NCBI GenBank assembly: GCA_003130845.1
Contig: QEXW01000025.1
Location: forward strand, 1,962-65,961
Source of the DNA: Anaerolineae bacterium
GTDB taxonomy: Bacteria > Chloroflexota > Anaerolineae > Anaerolineales > Villigracilaceae
Reading direction: 5' to 3'
DNA length: 64,000 nt
The notes beneath the pieces were generated by a model that was given only the letters and a program-made list of their open reading frames with translations, did no database searches and had not been told where the DNA came from. Both the position numbers and the translations under genes were made by a program. Below, in pieces: positions 24,781 through 46,120 of the stretch (its first letter is position 1; the number at the start of each line of letters is the position of its first letter).

Positions 24781-25559
24781 CGTCCCTCCTGTGCTTGCCT
24801 TTTCCAGGCACGTTTATGAAACCATAACGTCAGATAACCACGAATGGTGCGGGCAATTTTCATGCGGCTTTTCCCCACCCGCGCTTTGGTATCTAACACC
24901 ATCGGTACTTCGGAAATCGAGAGACCGCAAAAGACCATCTTCATTGCCATTTCTACCATGCATTCGAAGCCGGCACGCTCGATAATGCCTGGCCCGTAGT
25001 GACGTTGCAACGTTTTTAGTGCCTTCGCCCGATACAGTCGAAAGAAAGAACTCACCGTCAGCAGCCCGTGTAAGCCGAGCATTTCCTTAACGAATAGATT
25101 GGCAACTGCGCTCAGGAACACCCGAAAGGTCGAGGTGTTCACAATTTGCCCGCCATACATGTAGGGGCTGGCAAAAATCACATCATAGCCTTCCGCCATG
25201 CGAGTCAACATCTGCTTGACCAATTCCAAGCGTGACGTGTTGTCGCCTTCGATGGTCAGCACCAGGTCATTGTCTTGTAAAAGAGAAAAGAGATGGGAAA
25301 AACCCGTCTGAAAGGCCTTGCCGGGCCCTAGATTTCTCTCGTGCTGCAACACGTAGAGTGGAAAGCCAGCCTGTTCGGCAGCCTGCTTTGCTAAGCCGGA
25401 TGTGTTGTCCACGCTCCCATCATCTACGAAAATCACCTGAAGGTCAAACCGATCTATAAATTCACGGTGCAACGCTGCCAGAGATTGACTCAGACGTGGC
25501 AAATTGCCCGCTTCGTTGAGAACCGGCACCAGGATGAAAAATCTGGGAGGTTGACTCAT
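24777..25559 (-). CDS. family 2 glycosyltransferase, polyprenyl-phosphate sugar synthase-like (DPM1/ArnC/GtrB-like)
   Basis: FILVPVLNEAGNLPRL...IFVDDGSVDNT... Confidence 0.75.
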   Translation of the reverse strand: MSQPPRFFILVPVLNEAGNLPRLSQSLAALHREFIDRFDLQVIFVDDGSVDNTSGLAKQAAEQAGFPLYVLQHERNLGPGKAFQTGFSHLFSLLQDNDLVLTIEGDNTSRLELVKQMLTRMAEGYDVIFASPYMYGGQIVNTSTFRVFLSAVANLFVKEMLGLHGLLTVSSFFRLYRAKALKTLQRHYGPGIIERAGFECMVEMAMKMVFCGLSISEVPMVLDTKARVGKSRMKIARTIRGYLTLWFHKRAWKRQAQEGR

Positions 25560-37968: not shown

Positions 37969-38251
37969 GTTTTTTCCCTTTGTGTTTGGTTTTTCTCACC
38001 TGTGATTTTGGTTTGCAGTTCGTGCTGTTTGTAGAAGGCTAGTTAGATGAACATCCCTCATGCTTTTTGCTTACCCTGTTTAAAACCGCTCCCTCGACTG
38101 CACATCGCGCCACCATGCAGTTCGGTCACGAGGATAGGCGCAAACCAGATGTTTTTATAAAGATTATTTTAGGCTGTTTTTGCTGCAATCCCAAACAAAA
38201 AGAATGGTACCTTGGTACTGATGCTTGGCCTGTTGGCCCGGGCACGTTGAC

Positions 38252-38830
38252 TCAATGACCGACCTGTACCGTTTCTTGGCATTGCGGAAAATTTAGGCAG
38301 CCGTAATATTGCTGACCTTTGCGCGGGCCTTCTTTGTAAAACCGTAAGACCATGGTAATGCCACAGCGCGGGCAGATGGGCGAATAATCGTTTGCGGCAC
38401 GCATCGGCTGGTTTTCGACTTTCGTCTGTTTCATGGCCCGCGCGAACAAGCGTGCTAGCTCTTGCATATCGTAACTGGGTTGTGCTAGCACATGCACTAA
38501 CGGAAGGCGTGCCTGTATAAATAGACTCTCTAGAAAGTTATCTCTTGGGCGGTGTTCGGCTTGTTTGGGATAATCGAGTTCAATCGCCAGCACTGGTTTG
38601 AGCGTATCGCGCCGCAGCAGCAGAAAATCCACGCTCTTCCGATAGATCTTGTTGAAGTAGTGCACATTTTCGTTGGGGCGGGTGACGAAAAATAGTTCTT
38701 GTAGTGGCACTTTTGGACAAATGTACAGGTGCTCTTTCACCATCTCGTGTAAAACGCGGAAAAAAGCAGCCTCGGCAGGCGAGAGAAATTCTTGGCGCAG
38801 TCGGTACGGGAAGGTGGAAGGCTCGTCCAT
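38252..38830 (-). CDS. DUF2726 (restriction-endonuclease-like fold) protein with C-terminal topoisomerase-type C4 zinc finger
   Basis: FLSPAEAAFFRVL...VDFLLL...VLAIELD resembles the DUF2726 core. CPRCGITMVLRF...YYGCLNFPQC is a zf-C4_Topoisom motif. Confidence 0.65.
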   Translation of the reverse strand: MDEPSTFPYRLRQEFLSPAEAAFFRVLHEMVKEHLYICPKVPLQELFFVTRPNENVHYFNKIYRKSVDFLLLRRDTLKPVLAIELDYPKQAEHRPRDNFLESLFIQARLPLVHVLAQPSYDMQELARLFARAMKQTKVENQPMRAANDYSPICPRCGITMVLRFYKEGPRKGQQYYGCLNFPQCQETVQVGH

Positions 38831-38844
38831 ACATCTTCTCCAGT

Positions 38845-41436
38845 CTATCCATATCCCTGTTCTAACAGATTACGCAGCAAGTGTGTTTCTTGGGCTTCAT
38901 TGGTTATTTTTCCATCGAGCCAGGCAGCGCGTAGTTCCCACAAAATGCGCTGATAGGCCGGTCCAGGCGGCAGCCCAAGCGCTTTGAGAGTCTGTCCATT
39001 GGTGCGTGGGCGAATGGTTTGCCAGTGCAAGACATACTCTGTCAGGGCAGGCTCTTGGTTCACTTGAAAAACGGCGTAAATGGCCGGTAGGGGAATGTCT
39101 TCGAGCTGTTGTACCCATCCAGAGGGGGATTTTTCGCGCAAGGCCGGTAATCTCGCCTGGAGCGAAGATGCCGCCCGCAAGGCTTTGTACAGTTCTAAAG
39201 GAAAACGCAGGCGTTCCTGTAAACGTTCAAGGTTTGGCTGGGGCAAATCGAGCAACCAAAGCAGGTAGGTCAATGCCCCTTGTAAGGACAATCCGGCCAG
39301 GGTGGCAGGCAATCTCCATTCTGGTGGCGGTGGTGTGGTTCGCGCAGCTTCTAGCCGTTGGCGCAATGTTTGATTCCAGATTAAGACATCTGTGATGGAG
39401 GTCATTAAGTTCAGTTCGGCCAGGCGCGCCAACATGGCCGGGGCGTTTGCTTCTTCCACAATCAAATCAATCTCATGGCGCACCCGCTCGTGCGAAAGGC
39501 GAGCAATCAGTGGTTTGGCTTCATCCATGAGTTGCAGCGTGCGTGGTTCGATGCGGAATCCATAGCGTTGTTCATAGCGCACGGCGCGTAACATGCGTGT
39601 TGGGTCATCTATAAATGAGAGCGAATGCAAAACGCGAACACAGCCCTTTTGTAAATCGGTCAGGCCGCCATAGTAATCGTGCAGTTCACCGAAGTGACGG
39701 CCATCTAACCGCAAGGCGAGCGTATTGATGGTGAAATCACGCCGATGCAGGTCTAGTTTGATGCTGCCCCGCTCTACGGTTGGTAAGGCAGTTGGATGTT
39801 CGTAAAATTCTTGGCGAGAGGAAATCAGGTCTAATGAAGAGTGCAAGGTGTGGAAAGAGGAGTGTTCCAAGTTCCATTTGGCTGTGCCAAAGCGGCTATG
39901 GCTGGTGACGCGTCCGCCATATTTGCGTGCTAGGGCCTTGGCGAGTAGAATGGCGTCTCCTTCGACCACAATATCAAAATCTAAGCTTGGCCGATTGAGT
40001 AACAAATCGCGCACAAAGCCACCTACGATATAGGCGGGCAGATGTTGTCGGTCGGCTTCTTCGGCAATGGCGCGTAGAACTGCCAAACGGTCTGGCGGCA
40101 GGGAGCGTTCGAGTTGCCGGGCGTAGGTATGTTGGGGGAGACGAGGGCGGCGTACCAGCGTTTTGAGCAAATCGGTGCGGGTGACAATGCCAATGATTTT
40201 TCCACTCTCCGGTTCCACGACCGGTATTTGCCCCCAACCGCTTTCAATCATCAGGCTTTGCACGCGCTGTAGAGAGTCGCTCGGCGAAACGGTTACTTCT
40301 CCCGCCTCCATCAGGCTGGCAGCAGGCAGGTTCAGGCGGTGGTTAAGGGCGCGGTCCACTGCACGGCGGGTGAGCAGGCCAATGATTTTGCCATCCTTGG
40401 CAACCGGAAAGCCCTCGTAGCCGTAGCGGGTCATTAATTGTGCGGCTTCTTGTGCGGGTGTTTCGGGCGCTAGCAAGCGCGGACGCCGCGACATGACCTG
40501 TGCAACGCTAATCGGTGGGCGAACATAGCGGGGAAGCAATTCAAGCAGCTGGGCGCGCAATGCGCTGATGGAGAGAGAAGCATGGGCGGTGTCTTTCTTT
40601 ATCAGGGCCGCTGCTGCGCGGTCGTGTCCTCCGCCACCGAATTGTGCGGCAATTGCTGCAACATCAATATCGTCTGTGGTAGAACGCGCCACCAGGCGAA
40701 TGCCTTCGAGGGTCTCGACCAATACAAGGAGCGCGTCTGGTTCAAACAAATCGCGTAACTTGTGCGCCAGACTGGAAATTTCCTCGGTCAAATTGTGCGC
40801 TTCACCGCAGGTTACAATGAGACGATGCCCGTTGATTTCGTAGATTTCGGCAGCACTGACTAGGCGCTCATACACTTCACGTTGTTCGGGTGTGAGGGGT
40901 GGGTTGAGAAATCGGCTGGCAATCCCCAAATCGGCACCTTGCTCCAATAGCCAGGCGGCAGCGTGTGCATCGCGGGCGGTTGTGCGTGAATAGGTGAGTG
41001 AGCCTGTATCTTCATAAATGCCTAATAAGAGCAAAGTTGCCTGAATCTGGGTTAGCTTAAGGCCTTGCTCGTGCAAGGCCTCTGTTAGAAAGGTGGTGGT
41101 GGCGCCTAAGTCAAACGTGGTGATTTCCCACTCGGGTGGATTGTTCTTGCGCAAAGGATGATGGTCGAAGACGCGAACGCGAGTGCGTTCTCCCATGCCT
41201 TTGAGTGTGATGAGCGATTGCGTATCCACCAGGGTCACAATTTCTACGGCTCCAGGCGGCAAATCGCGTGACTCTAAGAAAGGAAATTCCGTGCCATAGA
41301 GGGTTAGAAATGAACGTACATTGCGATTCAGGCGGCGTGGCAGGACTGCATAAGCGCCTTCATCCAACAAATAGGCTGCATATAGGGCAGCAACGGCATC
41401 GAAATCGGCTTGTTCGTGCGTGAGAATCAGGCGCAT
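38845..41436 (-). CDS. DHH/DHHA1 phosphoesterase - CBS pair - poly(A) polymerase/CCA-adding nucleotidyltransferase fusion protein
   Basis: N-terminal HEQADFDAV...DHH (FDHHP) and GGGH (GGGGHDRAAAA). Two CBS motifs. C-terminal YIVGGFVRDLLL...DFDIVVEG and RRDFTINT (class II nucleotidyltransferase). Confidence 0.8.
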   Translation of the reverse strand: MRLILTHEQADFDAVAALYAAYLLDEGAYAVLPRRLNRNVRSFLTLYGTEFPFLESRDLPPGAVEIVTLVDTQSLITLKGMGERTRVRVFDHHPLRKNNPPEWEITTFDLGATTTFLTEALHEQGLKLTQIQATLLLLGIYEDTGSLTYSRTTARDAHAAAWLLEQGADLGIASRFLNPPLTPEQREVYERLVSAAEIYEINGHRLIVTCGEAHNLTEEISSLAHKLRDLFEPDALLVLVETLEGIRLVARSTTDDIDVAAIAAQFGGGGHDRAAAALIKKDTAHASLSISALRAQLLELLPRYVRPPISVAQVMSRRPRLLAPETPAQEAAQLMTRYGYEGFPVAKDGKIIGLLTRRAVDRALNHRLNLPAASLMEAGEVTVSPSDSLQRVQSLMIESGWGQIPVVEPESGKIIGIVTRTDLLKTLVRRPRLPQHTYARQLERSLPPDRLAVLRAIAEEADRQHLPAYIVGGFVRDLLLNRPSLDFDIVVEGDAILLAKALARKYGGRVTSHSRFGTAKWNLEHSSFHTLHSSLDLISSRQEFYEHPTALPTVERGSIKLDLHRRDFTINTLALRLDGRHFGELHDYYGGLTDLQKGCVRVLHSLSFIDDPTRMLRAVRYEQRYGFRIEPRTLQLMDEAKPLIARLSHERVRHEIDLIVEEANAPAMLARLAELNLMTSITDVLIWNQTLRQRLEAARTTPPPPEWRLPATLAGLSLQGALTYLLWLLDLPQPNLERLQERLRFPLELYKALRAASSLQARLPALREKSPSGWVQQLEDIPLPAIYAVFQVNQEPALTEYVLHWQTIRPRTNGQTLKALGLPPGPAYQRILWELRAAWLDGKITNEAQETHLLRNLLEQGYG

Positions 41437-41442
41437 ATTTCT

Positions 41443-41448
41443 ATTTTA
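41443..41448 (-). promoter_or_regulatory. -10 box TAAAAT 6 nt upstream of the DHH-CBS-CCA ATG (leaderless geometry)
   Basis: Minus strand reads TAAAAT-AGAAAT-ATG. It overlaps the -35 of the divergent plus-strand promoter. Confidence 0.4.
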
Positions 41449-41587
41449 CACACAATCCAAATTCCTGTATAATTAGACTATGTTTTTAAGCCCGTCCCCG
41501 TTCCCATTCTGCCTAACCTCCAGGTCTGGATAGGTTCGTTTTTGCATGCCAAAGGCGGCTCCCAGACCTGGCGAGCCGTTTTTGTTT
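41445..41587 (+). promoter_or_regulatory. promoter + 17-codon leader ORF (MFLSPSPFPFCLTSRSG) + antiterminator/terminator upstream of the LOG-proS genes
   Basis: TTTACA-N17-TATAAT (41445-41473), with ATG at 41480 (6 nt after the -10) and stop at 41531. CCAGGTCTGG (41520-29) is complementary to CCAGACCTGG (41562-71), which forms the loop of the terminator CGGCTC/GAGCCG + T5 (41556-41583). Confidence 0.45.
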
Positions 41588-41657
41588 GGTAAGTGGTCCG
41601 TAGGTTGACCAACTCTTGTTTTCGAACCCTGGCACGATACCTGTTTGTGGACTGTTT

Positions 41658-42191
41658 ATGAACATCACGATTTTTGGCGGTGCGCAACCCCAACCCAACA
41701 CGCCGGCTTATGAAGAAGCGTATCTGCTTGGCAAGCGCTTGGCGGAAGCAGGTCACACGGTGCTAACCGGCGGATATATCGGCACGATGGAGGCCGTCAG
41801 CAAGGGTGCAGCAGAGGCCGGTGGGCATGTCATCGGTGTTACCTGTGACGAGATTGAGCGCTGGCGGCCCGTCGGGGTCAACCCTTGGGTAAAGGAAGAG
41901 AGAAGAAGAAAGACCCTCATCGAACGCTTGGAGGCGCTTATCACTGCCTGTGATGCCGCGATTGCCCTGCCAGGCGGCCCCGGCACATTGACCGAGATTG
42001 CTCTGACCTGGAACTTGATGATTGTCGAATCTCTGCCCCGTAGGCCGTTGGTGCTGGTTGGAGAGGGCTGGCAGGCCGTCTTTGACCAGTTTTTTCGCTC
42101 TTTGTCCCACTACATTCCCGAGCGGCAAAGAGAGTTTCTTCGTTTTGCTCAGGATGTAGAGACTGCCGCCAAGATGGTGATGGAGAGTTAA
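41658..42191 (+). CDS. LOG family / TIGR00725-type Rossmann protein (lysine-decarboxylase-like misnomer family)
   Basis: ITIFGGA...AYLLGKRLAEAGHTVLTGGYIGTMEAVSKGA...GGHVIGV...ALPGGPGTLTE. Confidence 0.75.
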   Translation: MNITIFGGAQPQPNTPAYEEAYLLGKRLAEAGHTVLTGGYIGTMEAVSKGAAEAGGHVIGVTCDEIERWRPVGVNPWVKEERRRKTLIERLEALITACDAAIALPGGPGTLTEIALTWNLMIVESLPRRPLVLVGEGWQAVFDQFFRSLSHYIPERQREFLRFAQDVETAAKMVMES

Positions 42192-42228
42192 CGCTTGGCT
42201 AAACTCGGTTTGTTTGCCGCTTTTGTAA

Positions 42229-43704
<1,476 letters not shown>

Positions 43705-43754
43705 TGGATTTGGGGCGAGGTTGGTTGTTCTGATGTTTTTTGCTGGTTTCTGGT

Positions 43755-44573
43755 ATGCCGGCGATTGATATTGCTCGTCTTAAAACCCAGGCTGCTGTGT
43801 TGGTTGAAAAGTTCGACCAGCCAGAACGGTTCGTTAAGGAACTGCACGAAATCCTGGACCTGTATGCCGACCGCACGCTGCGCGTTGGGATTGCTGCACC
43901 GGCTTCTGTGTTACCTGCATACCGTGTGCCACAGGCTGTGTTGCGTCAAATCGAAATGGAGCTGAATCCATTGGCAACCACGTTCCCAGAGCAAGCCTTG
44001 GCATTGACCAATGCGTTGTGGAAAGCAGGTTATTTAGAAACTCGTTTGTTAGCCGCTGTTTTGTTGGGAAAAATTCACCCGGATACGCCACATTTATTGG
44101 AGCGGGTGCAGGCTTGGGTAGCGCGCGCGCGCGATAAGCAACTTCGCAAGGCCTTGCTCAATGCTGGCTTGGTGCGTTTGCGACGCGAAGCACCACAACG
44201 TTTTTTGGCCCTGATTCAGACTTGGTTTGACCCGTCCACGCCGCGCCTGTGGGAATATGCTATCTATGCCCTCATCCCTCTTCTGGAAGACCCTGCCTAC
44301 GAAAATCTTCCACCCATCTATACCATGCTGACGCCGGTTATTCAGAACATACCACCCATGTTGCAAAATGAATTGGCCGATTTGCTCACCGCTTTATATC
44401 GCGCTTCGCCCGTAGAGACAACCTATTTCTTGCGTCAGGCGATGGCCGGGGCTGCTTCTCCCCAGTGTGCGGTGATTTTGCGACGCGTTGCTCCCAGCTT
44501 GCCCGAAGGATTGCGAGCAGTTGTGCAATCTTCTCGTTCGCCACGCTATTCAAAACTTTCGGGTGCTTCCTGA
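43755..44573 (+). CDS. hypothetical helical-repeat protein (possibly DNA alkylation repair/HEAT-like)
   Basis: All-helical 272 aa with a repetitive L/A-rich pattern. The family assignment is tentative. Confidence 0.35.
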   Translation: MPAIDIARLKTQAAVLVEKFDQPERFVKELHEILDLYADRTLRVGIAAPASVLPAYRVPQAVLRQIEMELNPLATTFPEQALALTNALWKAGYLETRLLAAVLLGKIHPDTPHLLERVQAWVARARDKQLRKALLNAGLVRLRREAPQRFLALIQTWFDPSTPRLWEYAIYALIPLLEDPAYENLPPIYTMLTPVIQNIPPMLQNELADLLTALYRASPVETTYFLRQAMAGAASPQCAVILRRVAPSLPEGLRAVVQSSRSPRYSKLSGAS

Positions 44574-44688
44574 GTTCTTGTTACGGATTGATGTCTCATC
44601 TGTGCAGCATGTTGTGATAAAGTTGCAGCAACCAGATTGAACACGAGCGCCAAGTCATTTTTTCTTTCTTGAATGCACCAGAAGTGAG

Positions 44689-44694
44689 TATAAT
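44689..44694 (+). promoter_or_regulatory. perfect TATAAT 6 nt upstream of ATG 44701 (leaderless geometry)
   Basis: TATAAT-CCCCCA-ATG, with no Shine-Dalgarno. Confidence 0.4.
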
Positions 44695-44700
44695 CCCCCA

Positions 44701-45432
44701 ATGCAAACTGTTTCTCCCCCTTCTCCCTCACAAACTCGTTTGGCGCGCACGCGCGAAGCGCAGCGTCGTAGCCGCGAGGCGGTCTTATTCTCGCTTTTGC
44801 CGGTTGTTTTTCTGCTCGGTTTAGGCTTGGGCTGGATTCTGTGGGGCGACAATCAGCCTTCGAACACGCAACAAGCCGCGCAATCAGTACCCACTATGCC
44901 AGTGCGCCGCGTTGCGGTTGAGGCGGGTGATAGCCCGGCTTTAGGTCCAACAGATGCCCCCATCACGATTATTGAATTTAGCGATTATGAATGTCCCTTT
45001 TGTGCGCGTTGGCATCAGCAGGTGTATCAACGCTTGTTGAAGGAATACGAAGGCAAAATCCGTTTTGTCTACCGGGATTTTCCGCTCGAGAGTATTCACC
45101 CTAATGCCAAATCGGCTGCCATAGCTGCCCATTGTGCTGGCGAACAGGGCGCGTATTTTCCCTTTCACGATGCTTTATTTAGTTACAAGTACGACCTGAA
45201 TCGCGAATCGTATCTCATCTATGCTACCGAACTGGGTTTAGATATTCAGGCGTTTCAGACTTGCGTGGATGAGGAGCGCTATGCTGATAAAGTGCAGTCC
45301 GATTTGCGTTACGGGCTTTCGATTGGCGTCAATTCCACCCCGACTTTTTTTGTGAATGGGATTATCATCATTGGAGCGCAGCCGTTCGATGTCTTCCAGC
45401 AGGTGATAGAAAAGGAATTGGCTGGGCAGTGA
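44701..45432 (+). CDS. membrane-anchored DsbA-family thiol:disulfide oxidoreductase
   Basis: TM LFSLLPVVFLLGLGLGWIL, and ITIIEFSDYECPFCARW (CPFC active site). Confidence 0.85.
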   Translation: MQTVSPPSPSQTRLARTREAQRRSREAVLFSLLPVVFLLGLGLGWILWGDNQPSNTQQAAQSVPTMPVRRVAVEAGDSPALGPTDAPITIIEFSDYECPFCARWHQQVYQRLLKEYEGKIRFVYRDFPLESIHPNAKSAAIAAHCAGEQGAYFPFHDALFSYKYDLNRESYLIYATELGLDIQAFQTCVDEERYADKVQSDLRYGLSIGVNSTPTFFVNGIIIIGAQPFDVFQQVIEKELAGQ

Positions 45433-45448
45433 CGCCAGGAGATGTGTG

Positions 45449-46120
45449 ATGAAAAAGTTCGTGGCAGTTGCTGGCAATATTGGAGTGGGTAAATCTACTC
45501 TGGTTAACTTGTTGTGCCAAAAGCTAGGGCCCAATTGGCAGCCGTTTTATGAGCCGGTGACTGAAAATCCCTATTTGGCTGATTTTTATAGCGATATGTC
45601 GGCCTGGGCGTTTCACTCACAAATCTTTTTTCTCACTCATCGGCTGCGGATTCACTATAAAATCGCACAGCATCCTACCTCGGTCTTTCAAGATAGAAGT
45701 GTGTACGAGGATGCAGAGATTTTTGCCCACAATTTGTTTCTACAGGGCTATATTCATCCCCGTGACTACGAAACGTATCGTAATTTGTACGAGACGTTGG
45801 TGCAATTTTTGCCTCCGCCCGACCTTGTTATTTATCTACGCGCTTCTGTGCCGAGCCTGTTAACGCGTATTGCGCAACGTGGACGTGACTATGAACGTTC
45901 TATCTCGGCTGAATATCTGGCTGGGTTAAACCGGCTGTATGAAAAATGGATTGCCGGCTTTACGCTTTGTCCGGTGTTGACCATTCCAACCGATGATTTG
46001 AACTATGTTGCTCACCCTGGTCATTTGAATTTGGTGGTGCGTAAAATTGAAGAAAAACTGACCGGCAAAGAGGAAGTCGTCTTCGAACCAGAAGAAATGG
46101 CGCGAGCCGCAGAGGATTAA
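45449..46120 (+). CDS. deoxynucleoside kinase
   Basis: P-loop VAVAGNIGVGKSTL. ...NPYLADFY..., FQDRSVYED, DLVIYLRASV are typical of the dNK family. Confidence 0.85.
   Translation: MKKFVAVAGNIGVGKSTLVNLLCQKLGPNWQPFYEPVTENPYLADFYSDMSAWAFHSQIFFLTHRLRIHYKIAQHPTSVFQDRSVYEDAEIFAHNLFLQGYIHPRDYETYRNLYETLVQFLPPPDLVIYLRASVPSLLTRIAQRGRDYERSISAEYLAGLNRLYEKWIAGFTLCPVLTIPTDDLNYVAHPGHLNLVVRKIEEKLTGKEEVVFEPEEMARAAED

Follow-up and report, generated by a model that had tools for sequence, protein, structure and literature searches.

The window analysed here, a 64,000-nt stretch of contig QEXW01000025.1 from an Anaerolineae bacterium, contains a short leader (41445-41587) upstream of a LOG-family gene and of proS, the gene for prolyl-tRNA synthetase (ProRS). 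We consider it very likely that this leader is a ribosome-mediated transcription attenuator which uses the Pro codons of a small open reading frame (ORF) to tune expression of LOG-proS to the supply of charged tRNA-Pro, as had been proposed in a first-pass annotation of the window. This reading is carried by the sequence features of the leader and their conservation, by the coding signature of the ORF, by the predicted alternative RNA structures and by the link to proS. From these we infer where the transcripts end, that the ORF is translated and that the transcripts respond to the charging of tRNA-Pro.

Results

The leader ORF and its proline codons

The leader begins with a sigma-70-type promoter on the plus strand, TTTACA-N17-TATAAT at 41445-41473, which lies where the first-pass annotation had placed it and is the sole 11/12 promoter match in an 8 kb scan (38000-46000). 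The small Pro-containing ORF that had been noted 6 nt past the -10 TATAAT was also confirmed. It opens with the ATG at 41480, runs on the plus strand over 17 codons and a TAG (41480-41533; MFLSPSPFPFCLTSRSG-stop), and holds three Pro codons at 41492-41494, 41498-41500 and 41504-41506. The leader transcript is predicted to start at or adjoining A41480, and the mRNA appears to be leaderless, without a Shine-Dalgarno sequence. In the window's genome (G000), TATAAT-N6-ATG and TATAAT-N7-ATG occur 49 and 45 times, respectively, compared with about 3-21 occurrences at other spacings, and 39 of the 49 and 30 of the 45 lead into ORFs at least 100 codons long. Since these two spacings are enriched and mostly open long ORFs, it is likely that leaderless starts are common in this genome.

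The leader was compared with that of relatives, which are metagenome-assembled genomes under the labels Anaerolineales, Anaerolineae or Chloroflexota. In 110 related loci, an ORF was counted when it started 5-7 nt past a TAnnnT box and ended 22-39 nt ahead of the terminator. An in-frame ORF with the conserved motif was detected in 88 of them, and TATAAT or TACAAT stands 6-7 nt ahead of the ATG in 82 of these 88 leaders. The family alignment gives the consensus M-x-x-N-P-(S/L/V)-P-(S/A)-P-x(3-5)-(T/P)-(S/A)-(W/R)-S-G-stop, and insertions and deletions within the ORF are multiples of three in the alignment of 73 distinct leaders (A1). The proposal of a Pro-codon leader had called attention to conservation in relatives, and there the frame, the motif and the Pro positions are indeed kept.

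Each ORF of about 17 codons holds two to four Pro codons at conserved positions, and all four synonyms are in use (CCG 130, CCT 63, CCA 41 and CCC 19 across the leaders). The CC of the second Pro codon is invariant and that of the third is at least 90% conserved, and neither falls within the helix between segments 1 and 2 (the 1:2 helix) that is described below. Since the Pro positions are kept outside this helix and are filled by all four synonyms, selection seems to act on their decoding. For the Ser of the (W/R)-S-G ending, 73 of 74 leaders use TCT and none uses a different Ser codon, which points to a constraint on GGUCUGG at the RNA level. The Asn and the Ser further upstream in the peptide appear to be conserved because the Asn-Pro-Ser codons pair in the 1:2 helix. 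The first-pass annotation had cautioned that Phe and Ser codons match the Pro codons in frequency. That is true of the window's peptide, but what the comparison keeps is Pro together with the RNA-constrained Asn and Ser codons, and not Phe. Taken as a whole, the ORF has the appearance of a real coding sequence that would be translated.

Segments, pairings and predicted folds

Segment 1, AGCCCGUCC (41489-41497, plus strand), has the family consensus GAACCCnUCC, made up of the Asn-Pro-Ser codons, and is the candidate anti-antiterminator. It pairs with 41528-41536, where its partner GGAUAGGUUC extends over the final codon and the stop into the next bases. Segment 2, CCAGGUCUGGAUAGGUUCG (41520-41538, plus strand), takes in the end of the ORF with its stop codon and 5 further nt, and in A1 it has an invariant core, GGUCUGG (41523-41529). 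Segment 3, GGCGGCUCCCAGACCUGG (41554-41571, plus strand), makes up the loop of the terminator and its 5' strand, and the antiterminator would arise when the segment's core, CCAGACC (41562-41568), pairs with segment 2. The 10-nt complementarity reported earlier between these two segments is exact, CCAGGTCTGG (41520-41529) being the perfect reverse complement of CCAGACCTGG (41562-41571).

The predicted intrinsic terminator occupies 41556-41587 on the plus strand and is seen in both the minimum free energy (MFE) fold and the family alignment as CGGCUC-CCA / GACC / UGG-(C)-GAGCCG followed by U5-G-U3. Its stem is formed by CGGCTC (41556-41561) and GAGCCG (41573-41578), with TTTTTGTTT following at 41579-41587. 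The 10-mer at 41562-41571 had been described as the loop of this terminator. The hairpin and the T-tract are as described, but the 10-mer is not simply a loop since its CCA and UGG ends add three stem pairs around a GACC tetraloop, with C41572 bulged. The resulting 9-bp GC-rich hairpin with U5 (41556-41583) is present in the window MFE fold and is conserved in 73 of 73 leaders, with the 6-bp lower stem invariant in sequence.

RNAalifold on A1 returned the terminator alone and not the 1:2 helix, and this helix was then examined by explicit pair counts. Its seven pairs (A1 columns 16-22/70-76) are 78% paired, and five of the seven are changed on both sides, a count of double changes greater than in all 500 shuffles; controls in which the columns were slid are only 43-49% paired. 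The helix between segments 2 and 3 (2:3) has 89% of its cells paired across the 73 leaders and its 7-bp core is nearly invariant. The position flanking that core is AU in 15 sequences, UA in 9 and mismatched in 49 of the 73. Covariation in the 2:3 pairing is limited. A local hairpin within segment 2, AACCU..AGGUU, was dropped as poorly supported since it was only 70% paired.

The energies calculated for the window are -31.1 kcal/mol for the antiterminator state (2:3 plus an inner helix) and -31.9 kcal/mol for the terminator state. When a ribosome was represented by masking the bases it would cover, a Pro codon in the A site left the antiterminator in place and a ribosome at the stop codon left the terminator only. 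For the 73 leaders, a ribosome at the first or second Pro codon, with nascent RNA extending through segment 3, gave 2:3 in 65, compared with 43 when no ribosome was present. With full-length RNA, a ribosome at the stop codon gave the terminator in 70 of the 73, and ribosome-free RNA gave the terminator in 67 and the 1:2 helix in 42. The idea that mutually exclusive antiterminator and terminator structures are chosen by the position of the ribosome is thus reproduced by folding of the window and of the 73 leaders, and in these models the leader would follow the classical trp-like 1:2, 2:3 and 3:4 logic.

The known RNA families gave no match of interest. An Rfam cmscan of 41300-41800 at E<=10 returned a single, chance-level match to the pntA small RNA (sRNA) on the minus strand, with nothing near a gathering score, and the T-box model RF00230 had no match in the same search.

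Conservation and the link to proS

When 60 relatives were searched with the leader by BLAST, it proved to be present throughout the genus and the family, the best-conserved part being 41515-41587. Within the window's family (order Anaerolineales), a covariance model built on A1 (R1) detected the leader at E<=1e-5 in 265 of 301 genomes, well beyond chance. These include 184 of the 196 high-quality family genomes and represent 34 of 36 genera, almost always with one copy per genome. Among 401 class genomes sampled, strong R1 matches occurred only in the window's family and the complete element was absent from the approximately 388 other genomes. Two weak R1 matches outside the family (L122 and L124) were rejected as plain terminators.

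The first structural gene after the leader (41658-42191, plus strand) encodes a LOG/SLOG-family Rossmann protein (PF03641, 65.8 bits; PF18306, 72.2 bits; TIGR00730 below cutoff). It is followed by proS (42262-43704, plus strand), which encodes a ProRS of the archaeal/eukaryote-like type (type I; TIGR00408, 591 bits against a cutoff of 437). Downstream of the leader, proS was found in 27 of 27 loci tested, and in one genus of the family (L027) the leader lies directly ahead of proS without a LOG gene. Both genes had been named as targets and both follow the leader in the window, but only proS is constant. Comparison of the loci thus indicates that the constant regulated gene is proS, not LOG.

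A MazG-like gene of approximately 100 codons (PF12643) lies between the terminator and LOG in eight relatives examined (L034, L041, L050, L062, L070, L089, L095 and L103), where the operon joins MazG-like, LOG and ProRS genes. In most related loci the gap between terminator and LOG fits the length of this gene; the window is without it and has a gap of only 74 nt. On a contig of approximately 157 kb (JANJTV010000076.1), two inverted copies of leader and LOG (L037 and L038) lie near both ends, which would reflect either a large inverted duplication or an assembly artefact, and this is possibly the same case as contig C62 of genome G494.

On the opposite strand, a divergent promoter, TATACA-N17-TAAAAT (41443-41471, minus strand; 9/12 match), overlaps that of the leader. 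Its -10 TAAAAT ends 6 nt ahead of a minus-strand ATG (41436) and overlaps the plus-strand -35. The gene starting from this ATG encodes an 863-aa protein of the DHH-CBS-CCA/poly(A) polymerase type and has a likewise leaderless geometry. The 37-nt block that carries both back-to-back promoters (41436-41473 region) is 92-100% identical among relatives.

Related candidate switches in Chloroflexota

A wider family was surveyed with an exact pattern of the 3' part of the switch (GGTCTGGNTAR, gap, CCRGACC, gap, TTTTT) in small samples of 401 class genomes and 401 phylum genomes. This stricter pattern replaced a first pattern search in which control matches had equalled the real ones. It matched in 26 of the 401 class genomes against one control match, and in 11 of the 401 phylum genomes against six control matches, four of the phylum matches lying outside the class. 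Every match examined has a short ORF ending in ...P-(D/G)-x-x-S-G-stop. Three nucleotides upstream of GGUCUGG there is usually a copy of CC(A/G)G(A/G)CC, giving a 7-bp 1:2 hairpin; the copy in L184 is imperfect. CC(A/G)GACC recurs in the top strand of the terminator, whose stem sequences differ between families yet stay complementary.

The peptides encoded on this switch fall into Lys-rich, Pro-rich and Gln/Asn-rich versions. Lys-rich peptides (KKQGKKQMPDRRSG, NKSKSKKPGLGSG, TSKSKRGGKKPDTRSG and KQLKRVKKPAFRSG) lie upstream of homocitrate synthase (TIGR02146, 486 bits), LysX (TIGR02144, 349 bits) and a polar amino-acid-binding protein. The loci of this type (L143, L145-L152, L159-L161, L165, L166, L170, L171, L175 and L184) come from other Anaerolineae families and from another Chloroflexota class. 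They resemble a Lys attenuator for lysine biosynthesis by the AAA pathway, the transporter target being the binding protein of a polar amino-acid ABC transporter.

Pro-rich leaders with an adjacent segment 1 were found outside the window's family in four loci (L163, L164, L169 and L174; families f33, f65 and f29). In L174, from another family of the class, the peptide MWFKQINPPCPVEPSDKPDLRSG is directly upstream of a proS whose product is 64% identical to the window's ProS, and in L169 the peptide ..NPSSDPLPPGFRSG is upstream of metallophosphoesterase-LOG-proS. In L163 and L164 a Pro-rich leader (LPSPPCPCPA..RSG) precedes a metallophosphoesterase-like ORF, where the loci end; this ORF has no family match and is named by its similarity to the metallophosphoesterase of the metallophosphoesterase-LOG-proS locus. 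Gln/Asn-rich peptides such as SNQRQQTNQPPGSG and SSQQQPDQRSG stand upstream of LysE/RhtB-type exporters. Gln/Asn/Ser-rich peptides on the same switch (e.g. MSYTRSNQRQQTNQPPGSG) were likewise observed ahead of LysE/RhtB-family exporters in L167, L168, L185, L186 and L187.

We lean towards the view that an attenuator chassis of modular design, with a constant 3' switch and exchangeable specifier codons, runs through the phylum and that the window's leader is one version of it. In such a chassis the constant codons ...Pro-(Asp/Gly)-x-x-Ser-Gly-stop would spell CC(A/G)GACC-N3-GGUCUGG-nUAG, to be followed by a terminator with a CC(A/G)GACC top strand. Since on this shared switch the codons match the downstream gene, the match provides the strongest indirect evidence that the charging of a specific tRNA is sensed.

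The window's genome was also scanned for leaderless short ORFs followed by a terminator. Among the 22 candidates obtained, none besides the proS leader has a run of a single amino acid. Two Pro-containing candidates (C120 and C27) were rejected as they have no signs of an attenuator, and C27 looks intragenic. A search of this genome for a Lys leader of the homocitrate-synthase type gave a best homologue that is only 36% identical and has a different leader. On contig C153 of G000 (approximately 24920-25250, minus strand), the leader of an isopropylmalate/citramalate-synthase-like gene combines a promoter-like site with a strong terminator (GCGCGCTCTCCG..CGGAGGGCGCG-T6), and it may be another attenuator or a riboswitch.

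Discussion

We propose that transcription begins at approximately 41480 and that the mRNA would open, leaderless, with the AUG of the 17-codon ORF. When Pro-tRNA-Pro is plentiful, the ribosome would reach the UAG at 41531 and cover segment 2 (GGUCUGGAUAGGUUCG). With segment 2 covered, segment 3 would pair with segment 4, the terminator hairpin and U-tract would form, and transcription would stop near 41583. When Pro-tRNA-Pro is scarce, because either proline or ProRS activity is low, the ribosome would instead stall at the Pro codons (41492-41506), in or beside segment 1. Segment 2 would then be free to pair with the CCAGACC atop the nascent terminator, so that the terminator would be blocked and RNA polymerase would read into LOG and proS. 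With no ribosome present, segment 1 could sequester segment 2 and favour termination in most members of the family, an effect that would be weak in the window's genome.

Several observations weigh against this reading. The stalling signal is modest, with only three Pro codons that are not consecutive (P-x-P-x-P), and the LOG and MazG-like genes of the operon are without an obvious link to proline. The 1:2 state of the window is weak, at -31.0 kcal/mol compared with an MFE of -31.9 kcal/mol, and its nascent RNA adopts the antiterminator fold at every end tested from 41571 to 41583. Since 1:2 is marginal and the ribosome-free nascent fold is the antiterminator, the default in this genome may be read-through. 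Furthermore, the 10-bp 2:3 pairing of the window is unusual, as 49 of the 73 leaders mismatch the third position and are left with the 7-bp core and 2 bp. Within the family, neither the 2:3 core nor the 6-bp terminator stem shows any variation that could serve as evidence of covariation. Finally, in three genomes of the genus (L005, L006 and L009, from G021, G016 and G001, respectively) an insertion of approximately 60-200 nt separates the promoter from the ORF, which is not leaderless there. As a separate observation, these inserts hold a GAACCCG-containing stretch that resembles a partial duplication of segment 1.

An alternative that we regard as improbable is that the leader is a structured RNA or sRNA with a constitutive terminator, in which the ORF is a by-product of RNA constraint and proline is not sensed; the product of approximately 104 nt might then act in trans. 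It is clear that GGUCUGGAUAGGUUC and the Asn and Ser codons are constrained as RNA, and the terminator sequence is unusually invariant, both of which would suit such a molecule. It would not, however, account for the second and third Pro codons being kept outside the tested 1:2 helix with third positions free to vary, for ORF indels in multiples of three, or for a start codon that retains the leaderless geometry. It is also at odds with a peptide composition that tracks the downstream gene across the phylum, Lys-rich ahead of lysine genes and Pro-rich ahead of proS. Alongside attenuation, the terminated RNA could also have a role in trans.

Less probable again is that the Pro codons report on general translation capacity, such as the activity of EF-P or the speed of the ribosome, rather than on the charging of tRNA-Pro. 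Peptide-bond formation with proline is intrinsically slow, but strong EF-P-dependent pauses need Pro-Pro and the motif here is P-x-P-x-P, not consecutive prolines. The Pro codons of the Salmonella mgtCBR leader ORF have been reported to control a similar attenuator (PMC3641672), which lends the idea a precedent. Yet the constant gene downstream of the window's type of leader is proS itself, and the Lys-rich versions ahead of lysine-biosynthesis genes argue for sensing that is specific for the amino acid.

The (W/R)-S-G-stop ending raises the question of whether the nascent peptide, in the manner of TnaC, stalls the terminating ribosome on a small molecule. The S-G-stop ending is conserved through the phylum-wide family, as an arrest sequence might be. 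The conservation is nevertheless at the level of nucleotides, as illustrated by the Ser codon already described, and the residues that precede the ending vary (PDRR, PGLG, PDPG, PAFR) while the RNA complement CC(A/G)GACC is kept. A ribosome stalled at the stop codon would moreover occupy segment 2 and promote termination, just as a normally terminating ribosome would, and we think it very improbable that the leader works in this way. Least probable of all is a T-box-like or protein-binding operator in which uncharged tRNA-Pro or ProRS binds the conserved hairpin directly, for although aminoacyl-tRNA synthetase genes in other phyla are often under T-boxes or autoregulatory operators and the hairpin sequence is invariant in the family, the leader has no Rfam match in 41300-41800 at E<=10 bar the one chance-level sRNA on the opposite strand, is only approximately 100 nt long and without specifier-loop architecture, and has a conserved reading frame that would be left unexplained.

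The Pro-codon attenuator that we favour can be compared with several known systems. In the pheM-pheST attenuator of Escherichia coli and the trp, his, thr and leu attenuators, a leader ORF rich in the cognate codon is followed by an intrinsic terminator and by 1:2, 2:3 and 3:4 pairings that exclude one another. As in pheM-pheST, the gene that would be regulated in the window is an aminoacyl-tRNA synthetase itself. To our knowledge, pheST is the only known example of a leader-peptide attenuator for such a synthetase. The window's element differs from all of these in its Pro codons and proS target, in the predicted leaderless start without a Shine-Dalgarno sequence, in the alternating P-x-P-x-P codons, and in an antiterminator that pairs with the terminator top strand and loop. 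It belongs to Chloroflexota and has no sequence homology to them. Attenuation of pheST is mentioned in PMC4082710.

In mycobacteria, leaderless short ORFs with polycysteine form the first cistron, and their Cys codons set the expression of the downstream operon (bioRxiv 10.1101/834739). The window's ORF is alike in being a putative leaderless first cistron with amino-acid-specific codons and differs in having Pro codons and in phylum. The Pro codons of the Salmonella mgtL and mgtP leader ORFs couple the progress of the ribosome to alternative RNA structures and downstream transcription (PMC3641672). Those leaders, in contrast to the window's element, serve Mg2+ transport and virulence genes, combine other sensors and are not leaderless, and the two are not homologous. 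The Lys-type relatives in Chloroflexota have the same logic and the same target as a lysine attenuator of Thermus thermophilus, to which they are likened by design, and the window's element would be the Pro/proS version of this arrangement. In that organism the AAA-pathway lysine cluster reportedly has a leader peptide with Lys codons ahead of homocitrate synthase, an observation attributed to Tsubouchi et al. in J Biol Chem in 2005. The proS T-box riboswitches of Firmicutes sense uncharged tRNA directly and without a ribosome, by means of specifier-loop and T-box sequences. They would share with the window's leader the purpose of making more ProRS when tRNA-Pro is uncharged and the choice between terminator and antiterminator, and differ from it in that the latter has no Rfam match.

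Literature searches for a leader-peptide attenuator of proS or in Chloroflexi found no relevant report, and no earlier report of one for a prolyl-tRNA synthetase was found. The leader would also provide a well-conserved case of attenuation on a leaderless mRNA in Chloroflexota, a phylum that is mostly uncultured and in which gene regulation is little known. The covariance model and the pattern could be used to annotate the element in hundreds of metagenome-assembled genomes. The Lys-, Pro- and Gln/Asn-rich versions on one switch suggest that the specificity of an attenuator can evolve by exchange of codons on a fixed RNA chassis, which offers a compact, portable and ribosome-dependent design for a sensor. 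If the chassis reading is true, leader-peptide attenuators would diversify as T-boxes do, by swapping the specifier, and not by a separate origin for each operon.

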